DNA of 64,000 bases from Candidatus Babeliales bacterium. Lineage in GTDB: Bacteria > Babelota > Babeliae > Babelales > RVW-14. The notes beneath the pieces are model-generated. The model did not search any database. It had not been told where the DNA came from and saw only the letters and a list, made by a program, of their open reading frames with translations. Positions within the stretch are counted from its first letter, which is position 1. Every line of letters starts with the position of its first letter. The DNA is taken from assembly GCA_041652535.1 (NCBI GenBank), contig JBAZHB010000003.1, positions 573-64,572 of the forward strand. The letters run 5' to 3'. Below, piece by piece: positions 6,508 through 45,079 of this stretch. Made by a program: the position numbers and the translations under genes.

Positions 6508-6523
6508 ACTCCCTCTAAAAAAT

Positions 6524-29367: not shown

Positions 29368-29375
29368 TATTTAAA
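29368..29375 (-). promoter_or_regulatory. TTTAAATA box
   Basis: Lies 28 nt upstream of ATG 29339. Confidence 0.45.
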
Positions 29376-30762: not shown

Positions 30763-31363
30763 GCCAGCCTCTTATTACAGCCTCGTAGACGTGCTTCGTC
30801 AGTTCTTCGGGTATTACTGAACGTGACACGCTACCATGCGTGAGTTGGAACGAGCGATGTCCATTCCTCGCGTGATTGCATCGACGAAACTCAATCGGAA
30901 TGTTCGTCCATAAATCAGTCGGCTTCATCGACGTGCATCCATACATACAGTAGTCCACTCTCATTGGTGGTGTGAGTTTACCTAGGATGAATGGTTCAGG
31001 GAAGTAATACCTCGCACCTCGAACCCATGAGGGATTCTCGATGAGAAAGAACTTCGGCTTTACTGTATTGATTACAGAGATTGCCTTACCAAACCATGCC
31101 CTCGATAACTCCATCTGTTCAGGAGTGGTTGCCTTTGGTGTATTGTTAAACACTTGACGAGCAACACTGAAGTATGTGCATGGCGGTGACGCCAGGACCA
31201 CGTCGTAATGTCGCTTCGGCTCAAAGTCCAAAGCATCCATTGTAAAGGTGCATTTAAACTTCGGTACAATATCGAGAGTTTCCACATCGTGACCACCCTC
31301 GATGAAAGGACGTTCCCACGACTGCTTCCCCGAATATAGTCCTAAAACTTTTAGTCGTTTCAT
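30755..31363 (-). CDS. Compact C5-cytosine-methyltransferase-like protein (202 aa)
   Basis: VLGLYSG, ASPPCTYFS (PC motif), FLIENP. Start moved to ATG 31363 because a TATA box lies inside the longer track ORF. Confidence 0.55.
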   Translation of the reverse strand: MKRLKVLGLYSGKQSWERPFIEGGHDVETLDIVPKFKCTFTMDALDFEPKRHYDVVLASPPCTYFSVARQVFNNTPKATTPEQMELSRAWFGKAISVINTVKPKFFLIENPSWVRGARYYFPEPFILGKLTPPMRVDYCMYGCTSMKPTDLWTNIPIEFRRCNHARNGHRSFQLTHGSVSRSVIPEELTKHVYEAVIRGWHD

Positions 31364-31395
31364 GTCAGTCACCAATATAACTTTGTTCGCAATAC

Positions 31396-31403
31396 TATTT
31401 AAA
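31396..31403 (-). promoter_or_regulatory. TTTAAATA box
   Basis: Lies 32 nt upstream of ATG 31363. Confidence 0.4.
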
Positions 31404-31450
31404 TCTGCTGCCCATATCGGGCTACACTTCGACAACGGTTTGACCCGCCG

Positions 31451-32905: not shown

Positions 32906-33078
32906 TACTCCTCACCACCAACCATAAACCATCCGATGTCGTTACCGTTTAAGTCACGAACATCGCCGTCTTGTTCTCCTGCTACGATACGATTTCTGAT
33001 GTTAAGGAGTATCTCTCCTATATCATCACGGTTCTGGAAGGCAGAACCACCACCGTTAAGGCATATGTCGCAATACAT
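32905..33078 (-). CDS. 57-aa protein ending in GGEE (candidate ligatable tag)
   Basis: Hand translation MYCDICLNGGGSAFQNRDDIGEILLNIRNRIVAGEQDGDVRDLNGNDIGWFMVGGEE. ATG lies 1 nt after the stop of the upstream gene. Confidence 0.45.
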   Translation of the reverse strand: MYCDICLNGGGSAFQNRDDIGEILLNIRNRIVAGEQDGDVRDLNGNDIGWFMVGGEE

Positions 33079-33079
33079 C

Positions 33080-33805
33080 TTAACACATCTCGTTAATTGC
33101 GTCGTCCATATCTCTGTCGTCGTCCTTAAAGGCTTTGTCGCCCTTAAGGAACTCGATTTCAGAGGCGTTCAACTTCTCATACTCGTCGAGGAACGGGCAT
33201 CCCTCGCATGTCTGCGACGTACATTCGTTGCACATCTTAAGCATGTCGTCCTCTAAACTGTCGGGGATATACTTATGAACCTCTTTGTAGTCGTCGTTGG
33301 AATAGAAGATACCCTCGTTGTAGAGGAACTCACCGATGATATACGCTTGCTTCTCCGTGAACACACAGAATTTTCCGTCGTCTTTGAGGAGTTGGTGTTC
33401 GATTTTCTTCGACTTGTCCATCGTCTTAATGAACATCATCGTATCGGAGATATACTTCGAGGCTTTCATGCCGTGAATAATCCCATTGTGAGCGACGGCA
33501 ACCTTACAATGCGCCCTCGTATTCTGCATCTCGTGAACGTCGTCAGTGATAGGGAACGGGTGGCAGTTACCTCGATTGACTGCGCCGTGTGTCGCCCATC
33601 GGAAGTGTATGCACACGTCTGCTTCCTTCACGGCTTGAAGGGATTTCCAGAGAGCATCCACGTCGAAGAATCCTTTGACGATATGAATCGTCTTACCTCG
33701 GCGATACATATATCCAGCGCCGTCTGGATTGTTCTCGAAGCAATTCTGGATGATGGTTTTCGACGGAAGGTTTGATTCTTTCGGCTTGACCACGATGATA
33801 CACAT
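33080..33805 (-). CDS. Class-II glutamine-amidotransferase-like Ntn hydrolase/thiol peptidase
   Basis: Start MCIIVV (Cys2 nucleophile), NPDGAG, HFRWATHG, NCHPF, HNG. C-terminal CNEC..CEGC. Confidence 0.7.
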   Translation of the reverse strand: MCIIVVKPKESNLPSKTIIQNCFENNPDGAGYMYRRGKTIHIVKGFFDVDALWKSLQAVKEADVCIHFRWATHGAVNRGNCHPFPITDDVHEMQNTRAHCKVAVAHNGIIHGMKASKYISDTMMFIKTMDKSKKIEHQLLKDDGKFCVFTEKQAYIIGEFLYNEGIFYSNDDYKEVHKYIPDSLEDDMLKMCNECTSQTCEGCPFLDEYEKLNASEIEFLKGDKAFKDDDRDMDDAINEMC

Positions 33806-33999
33806 TACTTGTTCCCCCATATTTTAACGGTGATAAATGCTATCGTGATGATGATAAGTCCGAAGCCTTCTTGGATTATCCATCCCATTAACATCCCCGC
33901 TACGAAGATGTTATAAGGGTACACGAGAAACGCTGCGATGGTGAGAACGCCCTTAAGAACGACGTTCATTGCGATTTGCTGTTTGGTAATTTTCTCCAT
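33805..33999 (-). CDS. Small membrane protein (64 aa)
   Basis: Hydrophobic throughout. 1-nt overlaps with both neighbours. Confidence 0.5.
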   Translation of the reverse strand: MEKITKQQIAMNVVLKGVLTIAAFLVYPYNIFVAGMLMGWIIQEGFGLIIITIAFITVKIWGNK

Positions 34000-35438
34000 T
34001 ACAATCCCCTCTCTGCGAGGTATTTCAGAAGTTCAGGGTAATCCTGAACGGCGTATTCCTTAATCTGCGCCCATGTCATATGCTCGATGGTATCCACGTC
34101 GAACACAGAGAGGCTGTGAAATAGACGGATTAACTGTATCGAGGCGATGATAGTGTTCACGTTTAACGTGCCTTTGAAGATACGAACCTCGATAGTTTCG
34201 GAGTTGGTGAGGTTTACGCATGTGTATCTGTCGTAGCGCTTCTCTGACTTTGCCTCATCTACAACCTTATGAGTTATCGGCGTGGCTTCGGATACCTCAC
34301 ACATGCGCTTGGCGTATGCGTCGATTTCGTTCAAGACCTCGTCGTAGATGGTGAAGTCATGCTTCCGTCGTGAGAACTTGACGATTTCAGTCCAGAACTT
34401 CTCGAAGAAGTAGATGAACGAGGTTATACGTTCCTCGGTTTTGCTGTCGTAGCAATCGCCGAAGGCTCGCCTGGACATATGAACGTGTAAACCACACGTC
34501 TTTGTTTCGTGTGAACGGTATCCCGCCGCCTTTGCGAGTTCGCAGACGTGTTCGTATGGACGGTGTTCCATTATCCACTCATACGTCATTGGGTGAGAGA
34601 TAATCTCGAAGCCCTTCCATCCGAGTGAACCATCGTGGCAGCAGTAGAAATTGTCGGAGAGTTTCGACATATCGAATCGTGAAACGTCGCCCTCGTCGAT
34701 TTCCATCTCTGTTCCGAAGTAAAGCAATCCGTCGCCTTTGAAGTCGAGTTCAGGGCGGTAGCCGTATTTATGAATACCGTTCTCGTCTGGCCTACCATCG
34801 CGTCCACTTGTTTCCCAACACGACTGACAGTAGCAACCGTCGTTGTCGTCATTGTCGTCGCAGCACATATCGTCGCTGTGAACGAAGTTGCCACAGTCAT
34901 TGCACCTCGTCCAATTATGGTTGTAACAACGGGTGCAGAGGGAACTATCGTTCTCGTCGTGATACATCTCGCGGTTGTTGAAATACTCACCGCAGTCGAT
35001 ACAGACTGAATAGTTATCCTCGTAGCAACCATCGCATACGCATCCATCCTCGACGGAGTGCGCGTCGTCCATGTGGATAATTCTGTCGCACATATAACAC
35101 GAGGTATAGTCGTCGTCAAAACACTTCTGACAGATGGCTGTTCCCTCGTATATGTGGCGCTCACCGTCAATGTCGTCGGTCATGAAGTCGCCACAGTCGT
35201 TGCACATCCAGAACTCGAAGATACTCCCGTCGAATATTTCCTCATACTCGAACCATGCGAGCAGTCTGGCGATGTCCTCGTCGTAGAATACGCGAGCGTT
35301 CAATTCGCAGTCCTCACTATCGTCACGTAGATAGTGTCTGACGAAATCGCAGTCGAGCGTTCCGTCTGCTTTCCTCGTCCAGACGAGTTCATGGGTGTAT
35401 CTGCGCCCACTCTCGTCGATGTAAACCATGTCTGTCAT
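33999..35438 (-). CDS. Amidoligase_2-family carboxylate-amine ligase fused to an N-terminal multi-zinc-ribbon array
   Basis: YFGTEMEI, GFEIISHP, CGLHVHMS, IEVRIFKGTL. At least 8 CxxC pairs in the first ~230 aa. ATG 35438 (track start 35444 is TTG). Confidence 0.7.
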   Translation of the reverse strand: MTDMVYIDESGRRYTHELVWTRKADGTLDCDFVRHYLRDDSEDCELNARVFYDEDIARLLAWFEYEEIFDGSIFEFWMCNDCGDFMTDDIDGERHIYEGTAICQKCFDDDYTSCYMCDRIIHMDDAHSVEDGCVCDGCYEDNYSVCIDCGEYFNNREMYHDENDSSLCTRCYNHNWTRCNDCGNFVHSDDMCCDDNDDNDGCYCQSCWETSGRDGRPDENGIHKYGYRPELDFKGDGLLYFGTEMEIDEGDVSRFDMSKLSDNFYCCHDGSLGWKGFEIISHPMTYEWIMEHRPYEHVCELAKAAGYRSHETKTCGLHVHMSRRAFGDCYDSKTEERITSFIYFFEKFWTEIVKFSRRKHDFTIYDEVLNEIDAYAKRMCEVSEATPITHKVVDEAKSEKRYDRYTCVNLTNSETIEVRIFKGTLNVNTIIASIQLIRLFHSLSVFDVDTIEHMTWAQIKEYAVQDYPELLKYLAERGL

Positions 35439-35460
35439 GCTCAATCATACTCCTTCAAAG

Positions 35461-35468
35461 TATTTAAA
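35461..35468 (-). promoter_or_regulatory. TTTAAATA box
   Basis: Lies 22 nt upstream of ATG 35438. Confidence 0.5.
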
Positions 35469-35524
35469 CCTTATGCCCAGGCGTTCCATCGTCGGGCTAT
35501 GCGCTTCCTCGGTAATGAGCCGAT

Positions 35525-35529
35525 AAAAA
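35525..35529 (-). terminator. T5 run after an operon-final stop
   Basis: Minus strand reads CGCTTTTTATCGG 3' of the stop at 35542. Confidence 0.3.
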
Positions 35530-35541
35530 GCGTGGGATAGG

Positions 35542-35844
35542 TTACGGTTTCCCCGTAACGATGAGATTTCTGATGCTGTTCAGTTGGTTTATCGCCAGCC
35601 GCACTTCACACTTTTCAGGGTATTTCTTGCCGAGATTGGTGAAGTCCTCGACGTTCTGCGCTGCGTAGAGTTTACAGTGGAAACAGTCGTGAAATTCTTT
35701 GTTCGTCTTGAAACTCTCACATGAAACGTCGGAGAAAGCCTTCTCTAACGCCATTGCGCTCTCATTGGCTAACCGAGCGAGGTATTCTTCGTCGTTCTCT
35801 TGTCGTGACTGCACGACTTTTATCGTCTGTCTTTCGTAGTTCAT
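35542..35844 (-). CDS. Hypothetical protein (100 aa); paralogue of 31460-31738
   Basis: ORF track. Shared ENDxE[FY]xAR and DCxxCK[ML]Y motifs. Confidence 0.5.
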   Translation of the reverse strand: MNYERQTIKVVQSRQENDEEYLARLANESAMALEKAFSDVSCESFKTNKEFHDCFHCKLYAAQNVEDFTNLGKKYPEKCEVRLAINQLNSIRNLIVTGKP

Positions 35845-35933
35845 GGTAACACCATAATTATACCGAGTAGTCCGAACGCGATACTGATTGTCGAGATTGA
35901 CACAATTGCATTGAACGTGGTTTGATACTTCAT
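35841..35933 (-). CDS. Membrane mini-protein (30 aa)
   Basis: MKYQTTFNAIVSISTISIAFGLLGIIMVLP. ATGA coupling. Confidence 0.3.
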   Translation of the reverse strand: MKYQTTFNAIVSISTISIAFGLLGIIMVLP

Positions 35934-35958
35934 GTTTTAACCTTCCAGCAACCCTTTA

Positions 35959-36120
35959 TTACGCTCTGCGAGAAATGGTCGGCAGTATTCTGCATGGATA
36001 CGCTATGGCAAAGAATGAACGTATGAGCATCTGCGACGCGCATACGAAGATGGTCGATAGTGCCACAGAGATTAAAACGACGTAGCCGATACAGGCCACG
36101 ACGAGAATCACGTCTATCAT
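35959..36120 (-). CDS. Membrane mini-protein (53 aa)
   Basis: MIDVILVVACIGYVVLISVALSTIFVCASQ... ATGA overlap with the upstream stop. Confidence 0.35.
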   Translation of the reverse strand: MIDVILVVACIGYVVLISVALSTIFVCASQMLIRSFFAIAYPCRILPTISRRA

Positions 36121-36266
36121 GGGATTTCCTTCACGCTTATCGTCAGTTGAATGTGCTTACCCTCGTGACGTGCGATGAGTTCACCGAAAGAAAGAGAACC
36201 CGCGTCGTAGACTAACGACGGCAGTTCTCCGTATTTCTCGACTTTCCCACGTATGCTGACGGGCAT
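36117..36266 (-). CDS. Hypothetical protein (49 aa)
   Basis: Internal ATG 36266 lies 1 nt after the upstream stop. Confidence 0.4.
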   Translation of the reverse strand: MPVSIRGKVEKYGELPSLVYDAGSLSFGELIARHEGKHIQLTISVKEIP

Positions 36267-36267
36267 G

Positions 36268-36630
36268 TTAATGCTCCGACGGGAGGATGATAATGCCGCC
36301 CTCAACCCATACCGAGAACTCGCCTTCAGGGAAGTCCGTCATTGAATACGACTGTTTGTAGAGGAGATTGTCGTTGCCATCCTCGATGTATGACGTTGCT
36401 TTCCCGCCTTTGACGACGAGTTTCCAGACCTGAAAGTTGTGTGCGCGCACCTTCGGCTTCATGCGAGCGACGACGCTCATATCCGAAATCCACCAATGAC
36501 ACGAGGCTATCTCGATAAGGTCGGCAACTCCGTCTGTATGTGGCAGACAGAATCCGTTGCGGTGATACTGCGTCGTTCCGATGTGTCCTCGAAGCGCCGC
36601 CTTAAGTTCGTCAGTATTTTTGAATTGCAT
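36268..36630 (-). CDS. DUF6876-like protein (plasmid/phage leading-region family)
   Basis: GTTQYHRNGF..HTDGVADLIEIASCHWWISD pattern, by recollection. Confidence 0.5.
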   Translation of the reverse strand: MQFKNTDELKAALRGHIGTTQYHRNGFCLPHTDGVADLIEIASCHWWISDMSVVARMKPKVRAHNFQVWKLVVKGGKATSYIEDGNDNLLYKQSYSMTDFPEGEFSVWVEGGIIILPSEH

Positions 36631-36651
36631 AATACTACTTCTCCTTATTAG

Positions 36652-36659
36652 TATTTAAA
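36652..36659 (-). promoter_or_regulatory. TTTAAATA box
   Basis: Lies 21 nt upstream of ATG 36630. Confidence 0.5.
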
Positions 36660-36668
36660 GCCATCGGC

Positions 36669-36971
36669 TTAATACAGTCCACCCTCGGTGGCTCCCATGA
36701 ATCCGCACGTCGGGCATACGAACTCTCCGTCGCCTTTGCGCGCTACGTCCTCGTCAGTTTCCGTCTTACAGTTCGGGCATATGAGGAAAAGTTTCCCCGT
36801 TAATACACCTGGGTTCGGTGTTCCTGCTGTCGCTATGCCGTCACCGACCTTTAGAACGCTACCGCACGATGTGCATGTAGTGGTGTCGTCGGTGCTATCG
36901 TATTCCCCGTCTATTTCCTCGCCGCAGTTAGGGCAGTAATAGCGGAATACATCGGTAAAAGTTTTCTTCAT
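36669..36971 (-). CDS. Triple zinc-ribbon protein (100 aa)
   Basis: CPNCGE..CTSCGS, CPNCKT..CPTCGF. Start moved to MKKTF (ATG 36971). Confidence 0.5.
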   Translation of the reverse strand: MKKTFTDVFRYYCPNCGEEIDGEYDSTDDTTTCTSCGSVLKVGDGIATAGTPNPGVLTGKLFLICPNCKTETDEDVARKGDGEFVCPTCGFMGATEGGLY

Positions 36972-37047
36972 AAAATCCTTCTGCACTCGATGGTGCGACA
37001 CGTCGTAGAGGCATTGAACCTCTAAAAATAGGGAGCAATCTCCGACG

Positions 37048-37353
37048 TTACTCGTGGCGCTTGAACGTGAAGTTGTTCGCCTCAAGTTCCTTCTTGATAC
37101 GTCTGGCCTCGTCGATGAGCGTGTTGAACGAACAATGTCCGTCGTAGATGCAGTTGTCGCAACGAACGCCAGCGCATACACAGCCCGACGATATTACTTC
37201 GAGTGCGGCGTAGAATTTGTTGTCCTCGATACGCTTGAGGATAATCTCTGCGTCGGTGATAGCGACTGTGTTATCCCGTATTTCTGCTCGCAATACATCG
37301 TTCTTCGCCTTTCTCTCGGCGACAAACGCAGTTAACTCTTTGACTCTCGACAT
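37048..37353 (-). CDS. Hypothetical protein (101 aa)
   Basis: ORF track. Confidence 0.5.
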   Translation of the reverse strand: MSRVKELTAFVAERKAKNDVLRAEIRDNTVAITDAEIILKRIEDNKFYAALEVISSGCVCAGVRCDNCIYDGHCSFNTLIDEARRIKKELEANNFTFKRHE

Positions 37354-37361
37354 GATTCACC

Positions 37362-37622
37362 TTAACAAGTGGTTTCGCTCTGGACGAGTACAGACGTTGA
37401 CTCACCCGCGTCCATTGGGAAGCCGAGTTCTTTTGGCACGTCGTCGTACATCTCAACACCCATCTCGGTGGAGATACGGCAGATGAGAGCAATACGCTTG
37501 CCATGCGCGTCTACTGCCTCGACGGCAACGGAGTTCTTATAGGTCGATGCCTCAACGAGCCGAAGGAAGAATGGTAACTGCTGCTTCGGCGTTGCTTTAG
37601 TGAATATTCCTTTGAGTTTCAT
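37362..37622 (-). CDS. Hypothetical protein (86 aa); first gene of the leftward arm
   Basis: Internal ATG 37622 follows GAGGA. Confidence 0.45.
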   Translation of the reverse strand: MKLKGIFTKATPKQQLPFFLRLVEASTYKNSVAVEAVDAHGKRIALICRISTEMGVEMYDDVPKELGFPMDAGESTSVLVQSETTC

Positions 37623-37704
37623 GATATTACCTGTCCTCGGTGATACGAGGTAGACGAACGTGTGGATATGAACCACTTAAGACGAATACGCTATACGCGT
37701 TCGT

Positions 37705-37736
37705 TTAATATATAATATATATTACGCGCGTTCTGA
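37705..37736. repeat. Left copy of an imperfect inverted repeat (AT-rich box + CGCGCG + TTCTG)
   Basis: TTAATATATAATATATATTACGCGCGTTCTGA. Partner lies at 40739-40773. Confidence 0.6.
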
Positions 37737-37752
37737 CAACGAGGTGAAATTT

Positions 37753-37950
37753 ATGGTATGGTTTGAGGGTTGGTTGATTTTGATGCTGCTTTTTTACGTC
37801 GAACATCGACTGACACCCACCAAAATCCCAAACCTACGCATATGCAAACCCATGTGGCATAAATTGGAACGTGCAGAAGGCTTAATTTGTCGAAAGAAAC
37901 CGTTAAAAACCTTTGAATACCACCATTTCCTGTGCAAATATGCCGATTAA
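37753..37950 (+). CDS. Possible small membrane protein (65 aa)
   Basis: GAGGTGA lies 5 nt before ATG 37753. N-terminal WFEGWLILMLLFYV. It is an isolated plus-strand ORF in the control region. Confidence 0.25.
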   Translation: MVWFEGWLILMLLFYVEHRLTPTKIPNLRICKPMWHKLERAEGLICRKKPLKTFEYHHFLCKYAD

Positions 37951-38133
37951 TCTGCGTTTATTTCGCAAATCTAACCGTTTTTCACGCTTTAAATTTTTAA
38001 GCGGGTAACGTGCGTTTAATGCTCAAAATCGCGTTTATAACGGTAGAGATTTCTACACGTCGATGCAACGCCCTTTGAGTAATGCCACTCCGAGGAACGA
38101 ACCTCGTAGAATTGACGCTTCAAAAGTGGTAGT

Positions 38134-38146
38134 TTTCCAGTGGAAA
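38134..38146. promoter_or_regulatory. ORB-like dyad TTTCCAGTGGAAA (candidate Orc1/Cdc6 origin recognition box)
   Basis: Matches the TCCAGTGGAAA core of archaeal ORB elements as I recall them. The dyad loop is too short for a hairpin. Confidence 0.4.
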
Positions 38147-38149
38147 TGC

Positions 38150-38461
38150 TTAAATCTCAATCACGTCTGGTAGCCTCGAAGAAATCGTGGACTTTTTTGT
38201 TAATGCTTTTTGATTAACTACGGTTGCTTTGCACTTCTCTGCGCCTTTTAAGCGACTGACGTGATGCGCGCATACACGCTTCGGCTTTACTACGTCGATT
38301 GTGACGTTCTCATAGGCGACAGTTTCGTCTTTTAACGTGATGCTCACGACGTTTCCGAGGTTAATCGCCCTCGAATTGAAGTAAACACGACTGTTTTTCA
38401 GACGATACGCATGACACTTGTATGTATCAAAGAGGGTTTTAATGACGATATACTGCGCCAT
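38150..38461 (-). CDS. Hypothetical protein (103 aa)
   Basis: ORF track. Coupled to two upstream mini-ORFs. Confidence 0.5.
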   Translation of the reverse strand: MAQYIVIKTLFDTYKCHAYRLKNSRVYFNSRAINLGNVVSITLKDETVAYENVTIDVVKPKRVCAHHVSRLKGAEKCKATVVNQKALTKKSTISSRLPDVIEI

Positions 38462-38592
38462 TAAAGCATCCCCGTTAATACGTCGAACTTTTTCACGCTC
38501 ATGTGCGCTATCGCGCTTTTTATGCGAGCCGCTACGCTATACGCCTGGGCCTGCGTTCGTACATCGTCTTTAAGAACGTCGAAGCGCTTCAT
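38461..38592 (-). CDS. Mini-protein (43 aa)
   Basis: MKRFDVLKDDVRTQAQAYSVAARIKSAIAHMSVKKFDVLTGML. TAATG and ATGA coupling. Confidence 0.35.
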   Translation of the reverse strand: MKRFDVLKDDVRTQAQAYSVAARIKSAIAHMSVKKFDVLTGML

Positions 38593-38765
38593 ATGTGAAC
38601 CATCCAGCCACCGAAGGCATTTGTGTCGAGCATCTCGTATGGCACGAGGATTTTGTTGGCGAGTCTGACGTATTTAACGTCGTTCAGTTCGACGATTTCC
38701 ATGACGATACTGCGCTCGTGAATGTTTAACTTCACAACGTCGTATTTCTGTGGTGTGTATTCCAT
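38589..38765 (-). CDS. Mini-protein (58 aa)
   Basis: MEYTPQKYDVVKLNIHERSIVMEIVELNDVKYVRLANKILVPYEMLDTNAFGGWMVHI. GAGGT lies 7 nt before the ATG. Confidence 0.45.
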   Translation of the reverse strand: MEYTPQKYDVVKLNIHERSIVMEIVELNDVKYVRLANKILVPYEMLDTNAFGGWMVHI

Positions 38766-38782
38766 GTTCTTACCTCTGCTAC

Positions 38783-38797
38783 GCCCTTATTAAGGGC
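38783..38797 (-). promoter_or_regulatory. Palindrome GCCCTTATTAAGGGC containing a TTAATAAG box
   Basis: The AT core lies about 20 nt upstream of ATG 38765. Confidence 0.3.
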
Positions 38798-39611
38798 TAC
38801 GAGAACACGACGTTTGACCGTCGCTGTTCCCCATAGTTGCTACGGAACGCTGCGCCCTTATAACACAATGCGCTCACACGCCGTAGATAAGTGAAAGAGA
38901 TTCATCCGTCGTTGGTTACGTCGCAGTCGAGATTGGGCAACGTCGTAACCGCTGACGGCAATTTGTTTCACGTCGTTCTGTCGGCGTTGCACCCACACTA
39001 CGATGTAATGTCCAGATGTCAAGGGCGATTTCAGACGTGTTCTCCGACGACATTCACGACGGTTCATACGAGGGAACGCATCTGGCACTCTCCTCATCTT
39101 CGTCGTTGCAGTCGTCAGCACATCGTTGTCGCCGATTGAGCCGACGGTTTACAGACGAGAGCGACGAAGCCACTGAAGGCTCACGAGATACAACGAAAGG
39201 TGTCTACGTCGAAACTCTGACGGCTCACTCCGCGCTGCTATCCGTTCTCACGGTAGACGGTGTTGGGTAGTTTACCCCGTCAGTTACCTCGACGCATTTG
39301 ATGCACCGCCTTTGTTCCCGTTGATTAACGCCTTAACCCCCCTGATTGACGATACAATCGCGGCATAGATTGTGTGCCGACTGTATCCCGAAGGCTTCGA
39401 CGTTGCTCACGAGGGTGTCCGAAGATAACAAGGATGCCACCCGACGAGAACTCCGACGGCTTTCACGACGCATCTCTCGTCGCTGTCGTCTGTTCCACCG
39501 ATTGCTTCGTCATACGAGAACCTCGGATTTGGGATTCATCTCGTATCCATCGCCGTTTTAACGGCAAACCCTTCGACGGTGGTGAACCGTCTTATCCGTC
39601 GTCGGAAAGGG

Positions 39612-39767
39612 TTATGCGAGGATAAGTGCTTCCTCGGTGCAGTAGTGCAGATTCATGCTGTCGTCGGCTATTACGACGAGGGTTGGTATGCGAGGGCTGT
39701 AACCTATGACGGTAGCCATCTCGGTAGCCATGTAGATTACCCTCTGTCCTGCGACGTATGGTTCCAT
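39612..39767 (-). CDS. Mini-protein (51 aa)
   Basis: MEPYVAGQRVIYMATEMATVIGYSPRIPTLVVIADDSMNLHYCTEEALILA. AGGGTG lies before the ATG. Confidence 0.4.
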   Translation of the reverse strand: MEPYVAGQRVIYMATEMATVIGYSPRIPTLVVIADDSMNLHYCTEEALILA

Positions 39768-39770
39768 TGC

Positions 39771-39968
39771 TTACACCCTCTGTGCCATTGTGCAGCGAAC
39801 ATCTACCTTCTGTCCACGCTCATACTGCCTTACTGCGGCAGTCGTCATTAGGTTGCTCATACACTGTGCGCGTTCTGTTATCGACGTGCAGAGAACTACA
39901 CTCCGAGGGAGAACGACGTATTTGCTCTCGTTGCTGTTCGTTTTTGGGCTTGCTTCGATTTTTTGCAT
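39771..39968 (-). CDS. Hypothetical protein (65 aa)
   Basis: ORF track. A TTTAAATA box lies exactly 21 nt upstream of its ATG. Confidence 0.45.
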   Translation of the reverse strand: MQKIEASPKTNSNESKYVVLPRSVVLCTSITERAQCMSNLMTTAAVRQYERGQKVDVRCTMAQRV

Positions 39969-39989
39969 GATGGAACATCGACTCCCAAG

Positions 39990-39997
39990 TATTTAAA
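39990..39997 (-). promoter_or_regulatory. TTTAAATA box
   Basis: Lies 21 nt upstream of ATG 39968, the same spacing as at 36652 and 35461. Confidence 0.5.
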
Positions 39998-39999
39998 CC

Positions 40000-40380
40000 T
40001 TTCGCTCTGACGAGAAACACGTCGGTGACGTCTGACCTCACGAGAGAGCCATCGACCTGCCCATCGTCCTTCTTCTCCCCGAACATCGACGTGACCTCCG
40101 AGGTGTTCAGGCGTGGAGTGCCTTGCCCTCCCACGTCGTACCAGACGAGCCACACGTCAGTAGCCACCTCGACCCATCGACGTGAGCGCACCACCCCGCC
40201 CGCACCGTCGAAGAATCGAACGCGAAGGCACACGTCAGTGTCACCCCGAAGCCAACGTCAGTGTCCGAGGTGCGTCCTCTACGCGCACATCTACGCTATG
40301 CCTATGCGCATACGTCACATCTATGTGCCTACGAGTGTGTTATTACGTGCTACGAGCATACGTGTGTGTTACTTATGGGT
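40000..40380. repeat. ORF-free block of degenerate direct repeats
   Basis: GACGT(CT)GACCTC(A)CGAG at 40027 and 40088. (CAC)ACGTCAGTG at 40151, 40229 and 40254. CACATCTAyG..TGCCTAyG at 40286 and 40316. CTACGAG at 40329 and 40350. Confidence 0.55.
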
Positions 40381-40430
40381 GTTACTACCAACTATGGCGT
40401 ATGGCTTTCTCTTATTAGTAAGGTCCTGGA

Positions 40431-40467
40431 GATAAGTATATATAGTATAAGTATTAGTATATCAATC
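40431..40467. other. AT-rich AGTATA-repeat tract (candidate DNA-unwinding element)
   Basis: GATAAGTATATATAGTATAAGTATTAGTATATCAATC. Confidence 0.35.
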
Positions 40468-40480
40468 TTTCTATCCTTCT

Positions 40481-40518
40481 ATCAGACGAGAACATAGACG
40501 AACATCAGACGAGAACAT
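40481..40518. repeat. Tandem 15-nt iteron ATCAGACGAGAACAT x2 (23-bp period)
   Basis: Exact copies at 40481-40495 and 40504-40518. Confidence 0.6.
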
Positions 40519-40738
40519 CGACGTTACTTTCCTCTTGCTTATCTACCTTTGGGCATAAGTATTTATACCAGGACTTACTTACTTATGTGTATATAAGGCT
40601 TACGGCGAAAAATCAGGCCTGATAGGCGGCTTACATATAAAAGCAGCCACTTACGCAAAATTTTTCAGAAATTTCAACTCTCGTCCTCGTAGACCTATCG
40701 CATTTTAGTGATACCTTTATATACCTATCAGTGATAAT

Positions 40739-40773
40739 CAGAACGCACACGCGCGAATATATTATATATTATT
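40739..40773. repeat. Right copy of the imperfect inverted repeat
   Basis: CAGAACGCACACGCGCGAATATATTATATATTATT. Its reverse complement aligns to 37705-37736. Confidence 0.6.
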
Positions 40774-40880
40774 CAGTGTTTCCTCGATCCAATTACTAAA
40801 ATGCCTCAATTTAGTTCTCATTAGTAGTCCTTCGGACAAATTTCATGTACGGACTTTCTATCATAGTATTAACCAATCTC

Positions 40881-40888
40881 TATAAATG
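40881..40888 (+). promoter_or_regulatory. TATAAATG box upstream of the structural arm
   Basis: Lies 32 nt before ATG 40921. AAGGAA SD lies in between. Confidence 0.3.
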
Positions 40889-40920
40889 CAGAGAAAAACC
40901 TTACATATTAAGGAATTACT

Positions 40921-41292
40921 ATGACCGAATTCACATGCAAAGCCTGTATCCACGCCGGAGAACCGCACACTTTTGGCGACTCCGAAGTTGTAGAGTGCAG
41001 ATGCGCAGCAGTTACCATCAGCGGATTTCCTATCGTCAGAGCCGACTCATGGTGTACGCCGGGCAAACACGACTCGGTTGCGAACAATGGCGCTTCTGGT
41101 GAGGAAATGGTTGATGAGGGCGAAGAATCAATGCACCCTGGCGACTACATAACCATGAACAATGGCGATGGTTCCTCAACTGTGCTACACGTTCCGACGA
41201 CAATCATGAATCTGCACAGCAAAGTTAAGACGCTCGAACACGAAGTCGAACATTTAAGGAGCCGATCCCTGTGGCATCTAATAAAGCGCTGA
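40921..41292 (+). CDS. Hypothetical protein (123 aa); first gene of the rightward arm
   Basis: ORF track. Confidence 0.55.
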   Translation: MTEFTCKACIHAGEPHTFGDSEVVECRCAAVTISGFPIVRADSWCTPGKHDSVANNGASGEEMVDEGEESMHPGDYITMNNGDGSSTVLHVPTTIMNLHSKVKTLEHEVEHLRSRSLWHLIKR

Positions 41293-41887: not shown

Positions 41888-43378
41888 ATGAAGATGGCAG
41901 TAAAAACAAAAGTAGACCGAAGCGAGTATTTTTCTAAAGACGGCTATGAATACGCCTCTGTAATTCTCCGTATGCGCCAGGACCCAATCTGGTTTCTGCG
42001 AGAACACTGTGGCGTGGAGCCGTTTCCAGCACAGGAAGAAATGATTCGTGAGTTCTATCGAGCCAAATACAACCCAACTCTCCCGCCTTACCGTCATCTT
42101 GTCCTTGCACTTGGTATGCGGTCAGGTAAAACGGCGATGAGTGGGATGTTTGGAGCCATCGAACTCATGGACATATGCACTATTTCCAACCCATCGAAGC
42201 ATTATAAACTGCTGAAAGGACAGGGCATTGCGCTTCTTGCGTTAGCCACTTCACTTGACCAGGCCCTCGAAGGAGTGTTCGGCAACACAGTGAATCTCCT
42301 TGAAGGCTCCGAATTTGTGCAGACGTGGATGGATTTCAAATTTAAATCGGACACAATCGAATGTCCAGACAAGAATGTGTTCTTCAAGGCTCTCGGGTCT
42401 TGGGCAAGCACAGCAGTTGGACGTTCAGCAAAGGCGGTTTTCTTTGACGAACTTGATAACTTTGAAGATACAACATCTAAACGAGGTGCAACCGAGGTTT
42501 ACTCGCGTGTTATTAAAGCCACCGATACGCTCGGTGCCGATGGACATACCTTCGCTCTGTCCTCACTCAAATCTCCAAACGGAATAATGATGAACCTCTG
42601 TAAAGATGCAGAGGATCAGAAGCGTCGTCTTGGAAATGCTTGCAACACCCTTGCATACATCCGACCAACGTGGGAAGTGAATCCTTTCTTCAATAAAGAA
42701 ACGCTGATGAAGGAGCATGAGAACAATCTGGCAGCATTTTGGAGAGATTTCGGATGTCAGCCGTCAATCTGGAACGCACTAGCGTTTCCAAATGGTGTTG
42801 TCCTCTCGAAGATGGACAATGTGCTTCTTGCACCGCCAGCAAGTGTCATCAACCAACCCTACCGTGTAATGGCAATCGATCCTGCCGTAAAGAAAGATGC
42901 CTTCGGTATCGCTTGTGGCTATCGTCATCGTTCAGGGAAGATAATTGTTGATGGTGTGCATCGTTTCCAGAAGAAAGAGGGTAACATCATGATTATGCCG
43001 TCAGAAATTAAGGCATATCTCAATCGTGTGCTGCCAACTCTTAACGTCAAAGTGTTCCTCCATGATACTTGGATGTATTCTGACATCATAGAGGAGATAA
43101 TCCACAAAGGAATAAAGACCGAGCAGCATATAGTCAACTACGATGATTACTCTACATGGCTCGATCTTGAATCCAGTGGAAAAGTGACCGTTGTTTATGA
43201 TGATGTCCTTCGTTTAGAATGTGACAAACTCATCGTGACACCAGGACAGAAGCCAAAGATAGACCACCCATCGGCTGGTTCTAAAGATATGGCTGATTCT
43301 GTCGCAAATTGTATGAGATATATTAATGAAAACAAATTGAATACGCTCCCGAAAATGACGGGATATATGGGGTTTTAA
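41888..43378 (+). CDS. terL: Terminase large subunit
   Basis: Walker A GMRSGKT, Walker B FFDELD, C-terminal nuclease-like AIDPA. Followed by the portal gene. Confidence 0.85.
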   Translation: MKMAVKTKVDRSEYFSKDGYEYASVILRMRQDPIWFLREHCGVEPFPAQEEMIREFYRAKYNPTLPPYRHLVLALGMRSGKTAMSGMFGAIELMDICTISNPSKHYKLLKGQGIALLALATSLDQALEGVFGNTVNLLEGSEFVQTWMDFKFKSDTIECPDKNVFFKALGSWASTAVGRSAKAVFFDELDNFEDTTSKRGATEVYSRVIKATDTLGADGHTFALSSLKSPNGIMMNLCKDAEDQKRRLGNACNTLAYIRPTWEVNPFFNKETLMKEHENNLAAFWRDFGCQPSIWNALAFPNGVVLSKMDNVLLAPPASVINQPYRVMAIDPAVKKDAFGIACGYRHRSGKIIVDGVHRFQKKEGNIMIMPSEIKAYLNRVLPTLNVKVFLHDTWMYSDIIEEIIHKGIKTEQHIVNYDDYSTWLDLESSGKVTVVYDDVLRLECDKLIVTPGQKPKIDHPSAGSKDMADSVANCMRYINENKLNTLPKMTGYMGF

Positions 43379-43380: not shown

Positions 43381-43536
43381 ATGAAATTGGACTATGGTAA
43401 GATTACTGATGAAATAATCGCCGAGTTTCCTGACCTCAAAAGACAGGAAGCGGTAGTGTTTGAAGTTGTGAAAAAAGTATCTCTCGCATATGGATGTGCA
43501 TTAAATGACTGCTTCAAAGAAAAAGACGACAACTAA
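43381..43536 (+). CDS. Possible mini-protein (51 aa) overlapping the annotated portal start
   Basis: MKLDYGKITDEIIAEFPDLKRQEAVVFEVVKK... Confidence 0.3.
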   Translation: MKLDYGKITDEIIAEFPDLKRQEAVVFEVVKKVSLAYGCALNDCFKEKDDN

Positions 43537-45079
43537 ATCGACTGCGCTGACAACCACAGAGAAGCATGAGTTCATGAATTCAGATGTCAATTCTTTTACT
43601 CTGCCAAACTCTAATAAGATCATCGCAGGACAAATGATTACAGGAAACCTAACAGCATACATCATGGGAATGTCTAACTTCGACGCTCTCACTGACTGTC
43701 AGGTTTTCGAGCAGATGTATAAGCATGAGGCTGACATCGGCTCTGGTATAGACCGAGTATCTACCCTCGTATCAGAGGCGTTCAAAGGAATTGTTCCAAA
43801 GGACATCGGAACTAAACTCGAAAAGAAAGAGGAGCGCTGCCTGAAGGATGCAAAGAAAATCTATGAGGCAATGCGCATTGATAATCTCGCTGAAGCATAC
43901 ACCGAAATTATAATGACACAGGGAAATCTATTTATCGACTACCGAAACAAACTCGCTCCGTCGATTCTTCCCAACAATCTTGTTACATTCATTCCTGATA
44001 TGCAGTATCGTAACAATGCGGCTATCGTTCTATTCACAGACCCGAAGTATCTTGTCGTCAATGAGCAGTTGAAACCACAGTCGCCAAGTTACGTCATCGA
44101 GCGCGAGAACTATATTCATATCAAGTATAAAGATTCACCCGTTATGGCGATGGACAATCTCTCCAGGACCACATTCGGCATCTACTCAATCTCTCCTCTA
44201 CATCGCTGTATTATTCCCGTCTGGTGGAAACGTCAGATCACAATGATTGATATTCTGCTTCGTGCAAAGATGATACCTAGAGAACACCACCAGATCAACG
44301 CTGAAATCTTCAGTCTGGAAGGTTATCAGGGTACTCCTGACCAGCAACGCGCTGCACAGGCCGCAGATGTTCAATTGTTTATCTCGAACTACATCAACAC
44401 CATCAAGAATCAGGCAGTTGATCAGGGATACATCACACTTGACACAGTGGACATCAAATCCGTCGGTGGAGATAGTAAGTATCTTCAGAGCAACGATCTC
44501 CTGAAACAACTTCAGGGCGACATCTACACTGGACTGAACGTTCCTGCATCAATCGTCAATGGTAAAGATGCTGGTTCCTATGCTAGCGAACTAGTAGTAT
44601 CCAATTACGTGTCAGCAAAGGTAATACAGATAGCCAAGAAGATTAAGTTCGTGCTTCTCAACATGATTCGTGACAGACTCTTATTAATAGATCCCACGTA
44701 TCCAATAGAGATTGTAGACATCAAACTCGAACTGATCCTCTCAATGAACCGTCTTGAATCCTTCCGTCAGTTATCCCTCATGGTTGCTGCTGGTGTCTTT
44801 ACACAGGACGAGATTCGTGCTATCGTGGCATACGACGCGCTGACTGATGAACAGAAGAAGAACATTGTTTCGACGGGTAAACTTGTCATTGGTGATCCAG
44901 GTGAGGAGCCAGAGGAACCAGAGTTTCCAAAGGCGCCTGGTGAAAAGATAGGTGTAACCGCCAACAATGTCGCTGCTAATGCAGCAAGAGGTGGCAACGG
45001 AGAAGATGCTGCCTATCCTGATACCGACGAAAGTGCTGGTTCTCATACCAGAGATGCGTCGCAAAACATTTTGAGATAG
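43505..45079 (+). CDS. Portal protein (start may be ATG 43574)
   Basis: 524 aa, directly after terL. Call rests on size and position only. Confidence 0.6.
   Translation: MTASKKKTTTKSTALTTTEKHEFMNSDVNSFTLPNSNKIIAGQMITGNLTAYIMGMSNFDALTDCQVFEQMYKHEADIGSGIDRVSTLVSEAFKGIVPKDIGTKLEKKEERCLKDAKKIYEAMRIDNLAEAYTEIIMTQGNLFIDYRNKLAPSILPNNLVTFIPDMQYRNNAAIVLFTDPKYLVVNEQLKPQSPSYVIERENYIHIKYKDSPVMAMDNLSRTTFGIYSISPLHRCIIPVWWKRQITMIDILLRAKMIPREHHQINAEIFSLEGYQGTPDQQRAAQAADVQLFISNYINTIKNQAVDQGYITLDTVDIKSVGGDSKYLQSNDLLKQLQGDIYTGLNVPASIVNGKDAGSYASELVVSNYVSAKVIQIAKKIKFVLLNMIRDRLLLIDPTYPIEIVDIKLELILSMNRLESFRQLSLMVAAGVFTQDEIRAIVAYDALTDEQKKNIVSTGKLVIGDPGEEPEEPEFPKAPGEKIGVTANNVAANAARGGNGEDAAYPDTDESAGSHTRDASQNILR

Follow-up and report, generated by a model that had tools for sequence, protein, structure and literature searches.

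The interval 37623-40920 of a 64,000-nt stretch of DNA (the window) is the conserved, largely noncoding center of a tailed-virus family, and its largest gap, 38766-39611, is the gene of a new structured RNA of ~0.75 to 0.85 kb on the minus strand. The interval as a whole is composite. The explanation that we favor, and consider probable, is that this minus-strand RNA gene belongs to a unit headed by promoter D and acts in trans, among signals that work at the level of DNA.

A conserved noncoding region in a family of tailed viruses

The window encodes TerL, portal, PolB, RNR, ligase, RtcB, and an ERCC4 nuclease, and comes from a family of uncultivated tailed viruses of anoxic habitats. Among isolates, the best full-length matches of PolB are in haloarchaeal tailed viruses, the TerL of the relatives matches PF27249 (MJ0330_N), and TTTAAATA boxes recur before gene starts at archaeal spacing. 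These sequences make an archaeal host very probable. A scan of genome contigs found no provirus.

The interval is real and low coding, and lies between two gene blocks at a strand switch. The initial annotation had described three gaps in it and proposed looking in homologues for codon-periodic substitution across them. This comparison bore out the low coding content and found no periodicity in any gap: substitutions between the window and its relatives were level across codon positions in all three (chi-square p = 0.19-0.99), indels were mostly not multiples of 3 (e.g., 4 of 19, 0 of 12, and 1 of 32 were in threes), and conserved blocks gave roughly the same tblastx scores in all six frames. 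TerL, used as a coding contrast, showed strong codon periodicity (p = 1e-16 to 1e-44). Although ORFs of 80 to 137 aa can be drawn in the gaps on both strands, these results argue against missed protein-coding genes, and the single candidate small ORF is broken by stops in 3 of 10 relatives. An assembly artefact, which had also been raised as a concern, is opposed by synteny. The layout is repeated in at least 11 relatives assembled independently (JGI, ENA, Logan, IMG/VR), with the block order A-G-B-C-D-E-F constant, and the gene callers of the relatives leave matching gaps of 1 to 2.4 kb; because of this recurrence the interval is not an artefact. Missed genes or a faulty assembly are therefore extremely unlikely explanations.

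Two earlier statements need qualification. That almost every gene elsewhere overlaps its neighbor was somewhat overstated, since a crude ORF tiling shows a few other gaps of 160 to 450 nt in the window. The label of control region fits insofar as this is a conserved noncoding region at the strand switch, but the largest gap is an RNA gene. The inverted repeat, ORB-like dyad, iterons, AT-rich tract, and both TATA boxes listed in the initial annotation were all found in the interval.

The largest gap encodes a structured RNA

The RNA gene and the main parts of its fold are as follows.

38780-39570, minus strand: structured noncoding RNA gene, identified by covariation, a hold-out test, and transcript contigs, with neither an Rfam match nor a coding signal
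39526-39523 with 39501-39498, minus strand: covarying pseudoknot
39493-39478 with 39166-39151, minus strand: long-range helix
39476-39469 with 39192-39185, minus strand: long-range helix
39145-39141 with 38984-38980, minus strand: long-range helix
38831-38801 and 38797-38783, minus strand: conserved 3' hairpins

The 5' end lies near 39564-39570 and the 3' end between ~38825 and ~38780. In a MAFFT alignment of 11 distinct sequences, which is not structure-aware, the RNAalifold consensus has 107 pairs, compensatory double changes occur in 42 of these, and 95.3% of the cells are paired; none of 500 shuffles reached the observed values. All five covariation measures exceeded those of 500 of 500 shuffles and of every slid control. 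The consensus was drawn from the alignment on which it was tested, which is mitigated by the slid controls, with only 3 to 13 covarying pairs, and by the hold-out test, in which the structure learned on one subgroup was 76-81% canonical in the other, compared with 31-45% when slid. Invariant G-U pairs are present, and the alignment shows GNRA and GAAA loops. Each strand is more stably folded than shuffled sequence (z = -4.95, the value for the RNA gene, and -4.62), and the minus sense is favored by its ribosum alifold energy (-291.7 versus -250.4 for plus), by its G-U cells (247 versus 128), and by a mirrored structure that is worse by 24 kcal/mol. An Rfam search with the window and six relatives found no family matching the RNA, and the codon-periodicity test found no coding signal in 38780-39570.

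The RNA builds up as a separate species, and in metatranscriptomes its depth exceeds that of the late mRNAs. The copy of the relative L001 was recovered in three metatranscriptomes as a discrete contig of 810 to 841 nt (L001 positions 6013-6853; 6035-6844; 6099-6463 with 6618-6839). These are assembler contigs of L001, rather than of the window, and carry no strand information. Their depths were 10.3, 7.2, and ~5.5, compared with 3 to 6 for late genes and 0 for replication genes, contig depth being a poor measure of expression, and the RNA contig was the deepest viral transcript within 20 kb. The L001 contig ends correspond to 39564 and 38825 of the window; those on the 3' side differ by 86 nt, so that the 3' end is not sharp. 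The initial annotation had added, as a hedge, that the region may also specify noncoding RNAs, and with covariation and transcripts for 38766-39611 this became the main finding.

The RNA lies in a unit headed by an archaeal-type promoter

Upstream and downstream of the RNA, the leftward unit contains the following features.

39969-40005, minus strand: promoter D, CGAAAGG-TTTAAATA, invariant in 12 relatives
39771-39968, minus strand: ORF1, first gene of the leftward unit, kept in 12 relatives
39612-39767, minus strand: ORF2, conserved protein of 51 to 58 aa (51 aa here), aligned from 9 relatives
38150-38765, minus strand: coupled small-ORF triplet (38150-38461, 38461-38592, 38589-38765)

Promoter D is an archaeal-type BRE/TATA promoter heading the unit that holds the RNA. 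Its TATA box (39997-39990) precedes the ATG at 39968 by 29 nt, the distance from TTTAAATA to the first ATG is 29 to 30 nt in every relative, and ORF1 is probably leaderless. The box TTTAAATA(C/G)T also occurs 24 to 46 nt upstream of the minus-strand gene starts 26959, 35468, and 36659 in our own tiling, and just 5' of the ATGs at 29375 and 31403 in the printed sequence. The order on the minus strand is ORF1, ORF2, RNA, and variable small ORFs, and the two tiny conserved proteins always precede the RNA, with ORF2 just upstream of it. ORF1 encodes 47 to 68 aa across relatives (65 aa here; pattern MQK...R.Y..G...). The single-sequence AF2 model of ORF2 (pLDDT 89.5) predicts a small SH3/Tudor-like beta-barrel, for which Foldseek matches were generic (TM ~0.8, E ≥ 0.036).

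Of the five short minus-strand ORFs of the initial annotation, the pair is kept in 12 and 9 relatives and the first ORF of the triplet is conserved as protein. Its N-terminal part (in 38150-38461) has 58-60% aa identity in distant relatives, with one dominant frame (tblastx, 38297-38470), and the triplet as a whole has some codon periodicity (p = 0.008 versus L016). According to a coverage map the slot is variable, and beyond the closest relatives only this first ORF is conserved.

No TATA box precedes the 5' end of the RNA, which is therefore probably cut out of the promoter-D transcript. The fold could instead be a giant structured spacer acting in cis within a polycistronic early mRNA, as a stabilizer, processing site, or translation gate. 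It does lie between ORFs of the same strand without a TATA box of its own, and in nearly every relative the 3' hairpins, which are the most conserved, end 15 to 30 nt before a Shine-Dalgarno-like AGAGGT and the next ATG, a placement that holds even though the next ORF differs among relatives. However, it is the RNA that is conserved and not the downstream ORFs, a 0.8-kb fold that includes a pseudoknot and long-range helices far exceeds the needs of known leaders, and the L001 contigs cover the folded region only, at 2 to 5 times the depth of anything nearby, leaving the ORFs upstream and downstream uncovered. We consider such a spacer unlikely and prefer an RNA that acts in trans.

Paired elements and mini-ORB-like dyads

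Four further elements lie outside the RNA unit.

37650-37750, minus strand: element A, left arm of an inverted pair, with a core invariant in 9 relatives
40738-40775, plus strand: element A', right arm, TCAGAACGCACACGCGCG then AATATATTATATATTA, toward the rightward operon
37852-37940, no strand assigned: element G, motifs GGCATAnATTGGAACGTGCAGAGGCaTGGAATTGTCGA ... ACCACCRTTTCCACTGGAAA, present in 10 relatives
38135-38146, no strand assigned: ORB-b, perfect mini-ORB-like dyad TTCCAGTGGAAA, with 5 matches found versus 0.42 expected

Read on the minus strand, element A runs from GTCAGAACGCGCG through ~20 nt of pure A/T (37704-37724) to ACGAACGCG, and it lies ~80 nt ahead of 37623, the ATG with which the long leftward operon opens. 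The A' consensus, CAGAACGCRCAC..GCGCG plus an AT-rich tract, is found in 10 of 12 relatives. Together A and A' form an outward-facing inverted pair of CAGAACGCGCG and an AT-rich tract, conserved across the family, and would head both large divergent operons; within it, the inverted repeat I8 (37706-37720 versus 40757-40771) matches at 15 of 15 positions, with 5 matches found versus 0.25 expected.

The inverted pair brackets a 3-kb block, which could be a mobile or invertible cassette, and the fold has a size and complexity within the range of self-splicing introns or other mobile RNAs (group I or II, retroelement). In the source run, a 3,019-nt unitig (37715-40733) with breaks at or near the arms had a depth of 20.1, versus 6.8 and 9.7 for its flanks, but co-occurring strains sharing the block would explain this step equally well, and the DNA contigs contained no reported joints. 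The block has the same position and orientation in all relatives and is without reverse transcriptase, homing endonuclease, transposase, or invertase. An intron would also have no exons to splice, as each flanking ORF is a complete gene of its own and the downstream one lacks conservation; searches of the window and six relatives gave no match to a group I, group II, or other ribozyme family, even at E ≤ 1-5. We consider an intron, mobile RNA, or cassette highly improbable.

The second motif of element G is a mini-ORB-like dyad, ORB-a, which has decayed to TTTCCTGTGCAAA in the window. A second dyad lies 185 to 210 nt from ORB-a in L010, L001, L006, and L015, and L017 has its sole dyad at the ORB-b position; the two dyads are conserved across the family. 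Element G showed no conserved RNA fold. As a small ORF it was rejected, with in-frame stops in 3 of 10 relatives and no conserved start.

A repeat-rich spacer and probable rightward promoters

To the right of promoter D we distinguish four features.

40010-40600, plus strand: spacer between divergent promoters, a G+C-rich, strand-biased direct-repeat array
40604-40687, plus strand: element E, GGCGAAAA, ~20 variable nt, then TATATA(T/A)AAGCAGCCACTTACGCAAAATTTTTCAGAAATTTCAACTCTCGTCC
40693-40738, plus strand: element of ~45 nt containing TTTATATA (40716-40723), conserved only in L016
40866-40920, plus strand: promoter and leader F, TTAACCAAT..CTATAAATGCAGAGAAAAA, conserved in 17 to 20 loci

Spacer repeat families include CGACGTGA, ACGTCAGTG, and CCTCGGAG, along with alternating purine-pyrimidine tracts (40303-40315 and 40356-40369), the AT-rich GGAGATAAGTATATATAG (40428-40447, in a tract that reaches 40470), and tandem ATCAGACGAGAACAT (40481-40523, a TRF array). 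The bias between strands is strong for some words (e.g., CTCGGAG, 19 versus 2). Direct 7-mer repeats are enriched in 40010-40630 (z = 15.9) and in all 12 (z = 7 to 31), compared with ~0 for three coding controls and 2.3 for the remaining one, and their spacing peaks at 10 to 12 and 20 to 23 nt. The spacer cannot be aligned from relative to relative. Iteron arrays and parC-type centromeres occur in plasmids and phages, and the spacer resembles them in its many short direct repeats of one orientation, at helical-turn spacing between divergent promoters. Unlike those arrays, it consists of short, degenerate repeats from several families, which turn over too fast for alignment and have no identified Rep- or ParR-like gene as a neighbor.

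Element E is the most conserved noncoding block, with a 55-nt stretch, TATA box included, that is 91-95% identical in distant relatives. It was found at 20 of the 21 loci and probably serves as a rightward promoter together with a leader or operator; neither strand showed a conserved RNA fold. In both the source metagenome and a landfill metagenome, the ~45-nt element is joined to other flanks (short unitigs of depth 42 to 56 with alternative continuations). TATAAATA lies on the minus strand at 40560-40567, and the TATA box of promoter F (40882-40888) is 33 nt before the ATG at 40921.

A possible origin and switch

An origin or early/late switch role of the interval is plausible from the sequence, the switch being read from promoter consensus and gene orientation. 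Archaeal chromosomal origins have ORB and mini-ORB repeats around an AT-rich unwinding element and are bound by Orc1/Cdc6; the oligonucleotides for Pyrococcus ORB and mini-ORB sites carry TTTCCACTGGA(A/G), their core motifs being TTCC and GAA, and single mini-ORBs are reported to bind weakly (PMC1904270). The dyad TTCCAGTGGAAA / TTTCCACTGGAAA fits the TTCC...GAA core and is close to these oligonucleotides, the paired copies of the four relatives recall such origins, and a conserved ~20-nt pure A/T tract with GC clamps lies 0.2 to 0.6 kb from the dyads. In contrast to archaeal origins, there are just two short dyads, one of them decayed in the window, and no adjacent orc1/cdc6; the surroundings of the region yielded no initiator, Orc1/Cdc6, or Rep gene. 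The cumulative GC skew has its minimum at ~40 to 42 kb, inseparable from the change of gene orientation there. The dyads beside A would be the best candidate for an origin dependent on host Orc1/Cdc6.

The RNA might itself serve replication, as a preprimer or R-loop transcript like ColE1 RNA II near the origin or as a fold in origin ssDNA. It lies ~0.6 kb from the ORB-like dyads and at most ~1.5 kb from the skew minimum, iteron-like repeats flank the region, and both strands beat shuffles, as noted above. Yet the GNRA loops and invariant G-U pairs indicate RNA rather than DNA, the RNA reaches high levels with late genes on and replication genes silent, and there is no sign of an RNA-DNA hybrid or primer terminus. 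We regard a replication role as improbable. The phi29 pRNA (174 nt) and ColE1 RNA II (~550 nt) have mechanical or priming roles; the window RNA is like them a virus- or plasmid-encoded structured RNA near a genome control region, but differs in having no Rfam family match and no link to packaging or priming.

The remaining noncoding DNA probably works as DNA. In the 0.5- to 1-kb spacer between D and E, direct repeats one helical turn apart may form a platform for a DNA-binding protein, and their spacing suggests that binding there could set the early/late switch and/or replication.

A candidate ornate RNA of a probable archaeal virus

The closest known RNAs are GOLLD and ROOL, large "ornate" RNAs of bacteriophages and prophages that form Rfam families and have been seen by cryo-EM; ROOL can reach the level of 16S rRNA, and the amount of GOLLD increases as lysis proceeds (PMC12286853). 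The RNA described here is likewise virus encoded, within ~0.6 to 0.85 kb, and without an obvious protein-coding role, with an elaborate multihelix fold, pseudoknots, and a well-conserved 3' part. Its abundance is also comparable in kind, as the deepest viral transcript of L001 while late genes are on. Unlike GOLLD and ROOL, it matches neither their covariance models nor any other Rfam family, its probable host is an archaeon and not a bacterium, two tiny conserved ORFs always lie upstream, and it is not beside tRNA genes, none of which were found in the window. From synteny and abundance, the role we would guess at first is that of an ornate RNA or RNP acting in trans. Excised from the promoter-D transcript, the RNA would act in trans as a stable ornate RNA, and in the course of infection it may work with ORF1 and/or ORF2 in an RNP, in broad analogy to the GOLLD and ROOL RNAs of phages.

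Conservation and coding status of the strand-switch region

The window is a tailed dsDNA virus recovered from a groundwater metagenome, whose source run (X1) contains 98% of the window's words; it makes up the greater part of a 65,257-nt contig. Its genes are arranged in two sets on either side of the strand-switch region at 37623-40920, as follows.

From 37623, leftward (-): family-B DNA polymerase (PolB), ribonucleotide reductase (RNR), ATP-dependent ligase, thymidylate synthase, RtcB
Further leftward genes (-): RNA ligase, CCA-adding/poly(A)-polymerase family enzyme, ERCC4 and PD-(D/E)XK nucleases, two C5 methylases
From 40921, rightward (+): TerL 41888-43378, portal 43505-45079, tail genes

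We searched for relatives with TerL patterns and with exact look-ups for proteins homologous to the 123-aa product of the gene at 40921. IMG/VR, JGI, ENA and Logan assemblies from digesters, a landfill, wetlands and similar sites yielded 23 loci, about 11 of them distinct across the region. A phage-database DNA search with the region gave no match, and IMG/VR scans with RNA-motif and B-block patterns returned the same three contigs only. All relatives share one order of conserved blocks: A, G, a variable slot for small ORFs, B, C, two small ORFs, D, an unalignable spacer, E, F and the 123-aa gene. Gene callers left holes of 1-2.4 kb at the same place in these genomes. This shared arrangement disposes of an assembly artefact, which the initial annotation had named as a way in which its reading could fail. 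The blocks have the following positions in the window.

37650-37750: block A
~37852-37940: block G
38135-38146: ORB-b, perfect mini-ORB-like dyad TTCCAGTGGAAA
38750-38860: block B
39440-39620: block C
39930-40020: block D
40604-40687: block E
40866-40920 (+): block F, with a conserved TATA box 33 nt ahead of the ATG at 40921

The initial annotation had described three gaps in this region as non-coding and the five short minus-strand ORFs between them as real, and both statements held. Substitutions were evenly spread over the three codon phases in 37624-38149, 38770-39570 and 39969-40920, with close as well as distant relatives (p = 0.19-0.99); the same test gave p = 1e-16 to 1e-44 for the control gene TerL. 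Indels between relatives and the window in the gaps were mostly not multiples of three, and the conserved blocks had similar tblastx scores across the six frames. The phase test and tblastx thus reject the hypothesis that the gaps are coding. The first ORF of the triplet on the A side is conserved as a protein, and of the pair near block D, ORF1 (39771-39968, minus strand) is kept in 12 relatives and ORF2 (39612-39767, minus strand) in 9, with codon-sized indels. The neighbouring small proteins gave no informative family match. The region is conserved, composite and, apart from these small ORFs, non-coding.

A large structured RNA in the largest gap

Blocks B and C are the opposite ends of a single folded unit, a predicted minus-strand RNA gene at ~38780-39570 that fills the largest gap. 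We aligned 11 sequences of this large RNA on the minus strand. RNAalifold predicted 107 pairs, 42 of which stay paired through changes on both sides, compared with 19.5 +/- 2.6 in shuffled alignments. Standard pairs made up 95.3% of the cells in a pair-count test, and all five measures exceeded those of all 500 shuffles. When the 3' partners were shifted by 1-3 columns, pairing fell to 28-47% and 3-13 covarying pairs were left. As a guard against circularity, a structure learned from one subgroup alone was tested on the other, where canonical pairing was 76-81% versus 31-45% after sliding; the held-out set contained 43-65 compensatory pairs. The fold includes long-range helices, one of them of 16-17 bp (39493-39478 with 39166-39151) and also found by a repeat finder as I7, a covarying H-type pseudoknot (CCGA/UCGG, CCGU/ACGG, CCUC/GAGG) and numerous GNRA/GAAA-capped hairpins. 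The window's sequence on its own folded 5 SD better than its shuffles. The minus sense is favoured as the reading direction: the alignment energy was -291.7 compared with -250.4 for the plus sense, G-U cells were twice as frequent, mirroring the structure cost 24 kcal/mol, and several G-U pairs were invariant in all 11 sequences.

A copy of the large RNA from a relative, L001, was found in three metatranscriptomes labelled activated sludge; the transcript contigs are strandless and carry the sequence of L001, not that of the window. Two of the metatranscriptomes each contained one discrete contig, covering L001 6013-6853 (841 nt, depth 10.3) and 6035-6844 (810 nt, depth 7.2), and the third contained two pieces (6099-6463 and 6618-6839, depth 5-6), all depths being the assembler's estimates. 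Within 20 kb of the L001 genome, the late capsid block came next in coverage (depth 3-6); contig depth was zero or near zero for the replication genes and for the ORFs on either side of the RNA. The 5'-side contig ends agree within 14 nt and correspond to window 39564-39550; the 3'-side ends are ragged and lie at or past window 38825. We left out 2025 wastewater libraries marked 'RNA?' as expression evidence because their coverage takes in both the RNA and the structural genes, and DNA may be present in them. The contigs from L001 show that the structured RNA, which the fold assigns to the minus strand, accumulates as a discrete and abundant species. The initial annotation had allowed that the region may also specify non-coding RNAs, and the covariation and the L001 transcripts now place such an RNA in its largest gap.

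The large RNA matched no family in Rfam 15. There was no match at the gathering score in the 64-kb window and none at E <= 1 in six relatives, and a search of 37500-41000 at E <= 5 returned only mir-598, a noise match with 20.9 bits where the gathering score is 69. GOLLD, ROOL, OLE, HEARO, group I and II introns, pRNA, RNase P and ribozymes are all among the families without a match. The RNA does have the general characteristics of a structured non-coding RNA: covariation beyond the controls, a discrete transcript in relative L001 and no coding signal.

A proposed transcription unit with two small proteins

ORF1, ORF2 and the RNA follow each other in an order that never varies among the relatives, while the ORFs beyond the RNA do vary. 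Ahead of ORF1 lies promoter D (39969-40005, minus strand), which consists of CGAAAGG-TTTAAATA, 21-22 nt and then ATGCAAAA, and is invariant in 12 relatives. In these 12 the motif is located 29-30 nt ahead of the ATG. With its TTTAWATA box, a purine-rich BRE before it and a distance of ~30 nt to a leaderless start codon, promoter D agrees with an archaeal BRE/TATA promoter; this layout is the classical geometry of a leaderless archaeal mRNA. Since there is no TATA box ahead of the large RNA's 5' end, processing of the promoter-D transcript is its probable source. We propose that promoter D would drive ORF1, ORF2, the RNA and the small ORFs, and that the RNA would be cut out of this transcript to act in trans, possibly together with ORF1 and ORF2. 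Rival explanations hold that the RNA acts in cis as a giant spacer, or that it is a replication primer.

ORF1 and ORF2 encode 47-68 and 51-58 aa, respectively, among the relatives. The best single-sequence model of ORF2 (pLDDT 89.5) predicts a five-stranded SH3/Tudor-like barrel, a fold that often binds nucleic acids. A fold search with ORF2 returned generic SH3/Tudor barrels only, and the homologue search for its structure alignment returned only the query itself. The single-sequence model of ORF1 was unusable (pLDDT 48.5), and a profile-versus-PDB search with both proteins found nothing significant. ORF1 and ORF2 might form an RNP with the RNA, which we put forward as a hypothesis because the match of the ORF2 barrel is generic.

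Candidate origin and promoter elements in the flanking gaps

In the gap on the left (37624-38149), element A has an invariant sequence in the relatives, GTCAGAACGCGCG followed by a pure A/T tract of ~20 nt and ACGAACGCG, and is located ~80 nt upstream of the head gene of the leftward operon, whichever gene that is. Element G comprises two conserved motifs, the second of which, ACCACCRTTTCCACTGGAAA, is a mini-ORB-like dyad. Oligonucleotides with the ORB and mini-ORB of Pyrococcus carry TTTCCACTGGA(A/G), in which the TTCC and GAA cores are essential (PMC1904270). A second dyad lies 185-210 nt farther on in L010, L001, L006 and L015; its counterpart in the window is the perfect ORB-b. An archaeal oriC-type origin would have several copies of the ORB or mini-ORB core (a TTCC-N3-GGAA dyad); the window has one perfect and one decayed dyad, and most other relatives have a single one. 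The ORBs of such an origin would flank an AT-rich unwinding element; the A/T tract of element A is beside the two dyads and not between them. In total, the ORB-like 12-mer had 5 matches versus 0.42 expected, a count that includes copies within genes; one-mismatch copies are located at 5507-5518, 35672-35683 and 43171-43182, inside RNR, a 100-aa ORF and TerL. A Pfam scan of 40 window proteins detected no Orc1/Cdc6 domain, so the adjacent initiator gene (orc1/cdc6) of an archaeal oriC-type origin was not found, and gave a weak MCM P-loop match at 452-1579. Judged at the level of motifs, the dyads next to element A are the best candidate for an Orc1/Cdc6-type origin. Element G had no conserved RNA fold. 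A small plus-strand ORF across it (37852-37950) was discarded, as it contains stops in 3 of 10 relatives and has no third-position excess. In one metatranscriptome a 158-nt contig of low depth (2.7) covers L001 5194-5351, over the element G and ORB-a (mini-ORB-like dyad) region, and there may be a short transcript at this site.

The gap on the right (39969-40920) contains the D-E spacer, which is G+C-rich (0.49-0.62) in all 12 relatives and crowded with short repeats on the same strand. Direct 7-mer pairs were in excess in 12 of 12 relatives (z = 7-31); of four coding controls, three gave z ~0 and one gave 2.3. The motifs have a strong strand bias, and repeat distances peak at 10-12 and at 20-23 nt, the lengths of one and two turns of the helix. 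From this phasing the repeats look like an array that binds protein along a single face of the DNA. The same-strand excess and the helical phasing are those of an iteron- or centromere-type array, although no cognate Rep or ParR-like binding protein was found nearby. The spacer ends with alternating purine-pyrimidine tracts and the AT-rich GGAGATAAGTATATATAG.

Among the non-coding blocks, element E is conserved best (91-95% over 55 nt). It has a TATA box followed by ~40 invariant nt and no conserved RNA fold, and we read it as a putative rightward promoter with a leader or operator. Element A' (40738-40775), with the consensus CAGAACGCRCAC..GCGCG and an AT tract, mirrors A and is present in 10 of 12 relatives. 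The inverted repeat seen in the initial annotation is therefore a pair, A/A', that occurs across the family, faces outward and encloses the entire control region. The core of A/A' (ACAGAACGCGCAC) has a third copy at 39877-39866 on the minus strand, inside ORF1, where it encodes TERAQ; this copy occurs in the closest relatives only. In our proposal, A/A' and E/F would head the two large operons, and the ORB-like dyads, the phased repeats or both would mark the origin and the regulatory switch.

Probable sharing of the control block between strains

A unitig of source run X1 spanning 37715-40733 (3,019 nt) had a depth of 20.1, with 6.8 and 9.7 in its flanks. The depth rose to 42-56 at a TATA-containing element of ~45 nt at the right edge of this unitig (40693-40738), with alternative continuations in X1 and in a landfill run. 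One continuation resembles relatives L016 and L004, both of which have a ~75-nt extra stretch there. The depth pattern suggests that the block is either common to several strains or swapped between them as a cassette. A further rival explanation is an intron or mobile cassette. We found no recombinase or transposase gene in the block, its orientation is the same in all relatives, and no cassette joints were seen in DNA contigs; these results do not support a cassette that inverts or moves. Most simply, strains that occur together would share the control block and recombine at its edges.

Likely host and other features of the genome

The host is probably archaeal. Among isolates, the best full-length PolB matches were in haloarchaeal tailed viruses (22-25% identity, E down to 5e-45), PF27249 (MJ0330_N) was found in TerL of relatives, and start codons on the minus strand repeatedly have a TTTAAATA(C/G)T box 24-46 nt ahead of them, a Shine-Dalgarno-like sequence lying between box and codon; the mini-ORB-like dyads point the same way. 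TerL patterns and the RNA motif found no provirus or host in a set of one genome per species, hence there is no direct host assignment.

A tRNA/tmRNA scan of the window found none. The genome encodes an RNA-repair and maturation set at 13700-14404, 18476-19651 and 23649-24926 (a CCA-adding/poly(A) polymerase family enzyme, RtcB and an Rnl-type RNA ligase), which could conceivably serve the large RNA by healing its ends or adding a tail. Sequence 33000-40500 forms a compositional domain that takes in coding genes and the non-coding region alike: CGACG/CGTCG is ~five-fold enriched (10-20 per kb versus 0-5 elsewhere), CpG observed/expected is ~1.4-1.5, and G+C is 0.46-0.52 versus 0.43 in the genome. 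Two C5-cytosine methylase genes (19648-20562 and 30755-31435) lie outside this domain. A 481-aa protein (33999-35444) has a C-terminal amidoligase domain (PF12224) and an N-terminal half rich in repeated Cys-x2-Cys and Asp-rich motifs. In the tail-gene region, plus-strand ORF 57156-58043 contains a 117-nt tandem repeat (57378-57663; 2.4 copies, 77% matches). L001 has an extra ORF missing from the window, at 9568-10011 between the 187-aa gene and TerL; its Cys-rich 147-aa product is, judged by eye, possibly an HNH-type endonuclease.

Significance

Beyond the ribosome, RNase P and introns, very few large non-coding RNAs with an intricate fold are known. Each of them has opened new biology, and OLE, GOLLD and ROOL were recently shown to form RNA-only cages. 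The large RNA resembles GOLLD and ROOL in kind, as they are large, ornate, virus-encoded and abundant RNAs whose function is not known (PMC12286853), but it is a member of neither Rfam family. In our literature search, neither such an RNA in archaeal viruses nor the large RNA itself had been described, and for these reasons we class it as new among the large ornate RNAs. With more doubt than confidence, we propose that it represents an undescribed class, the first in archaeal viruses, which together with ORF1 and the SH3-like ORF2 would work during infection as an RNP or as an assembly of RNA alone, acting as a catalyst, cage or decoy. The covariation, the pseudoknot, the transcripts and the fixed pair of mini-proteins make the RNA ready for in-vitro transcription, probing and cryo-EM.

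The virus family is common in digesters, landfills, wetlands and groundwater, and its hosts are likely archaea of methane-cycling communities. For this family, comparison of the relatives over the region gives a compact map of candidate control DNA in an archaeal virus, with ORB-like dyads, phased repeats and paired promoter/operator elements. If our proposal is true, archaeal viruses would possess an RNA comparable in rank to GOLLD, ROOL and OLE, and evolutionarily independent of them.
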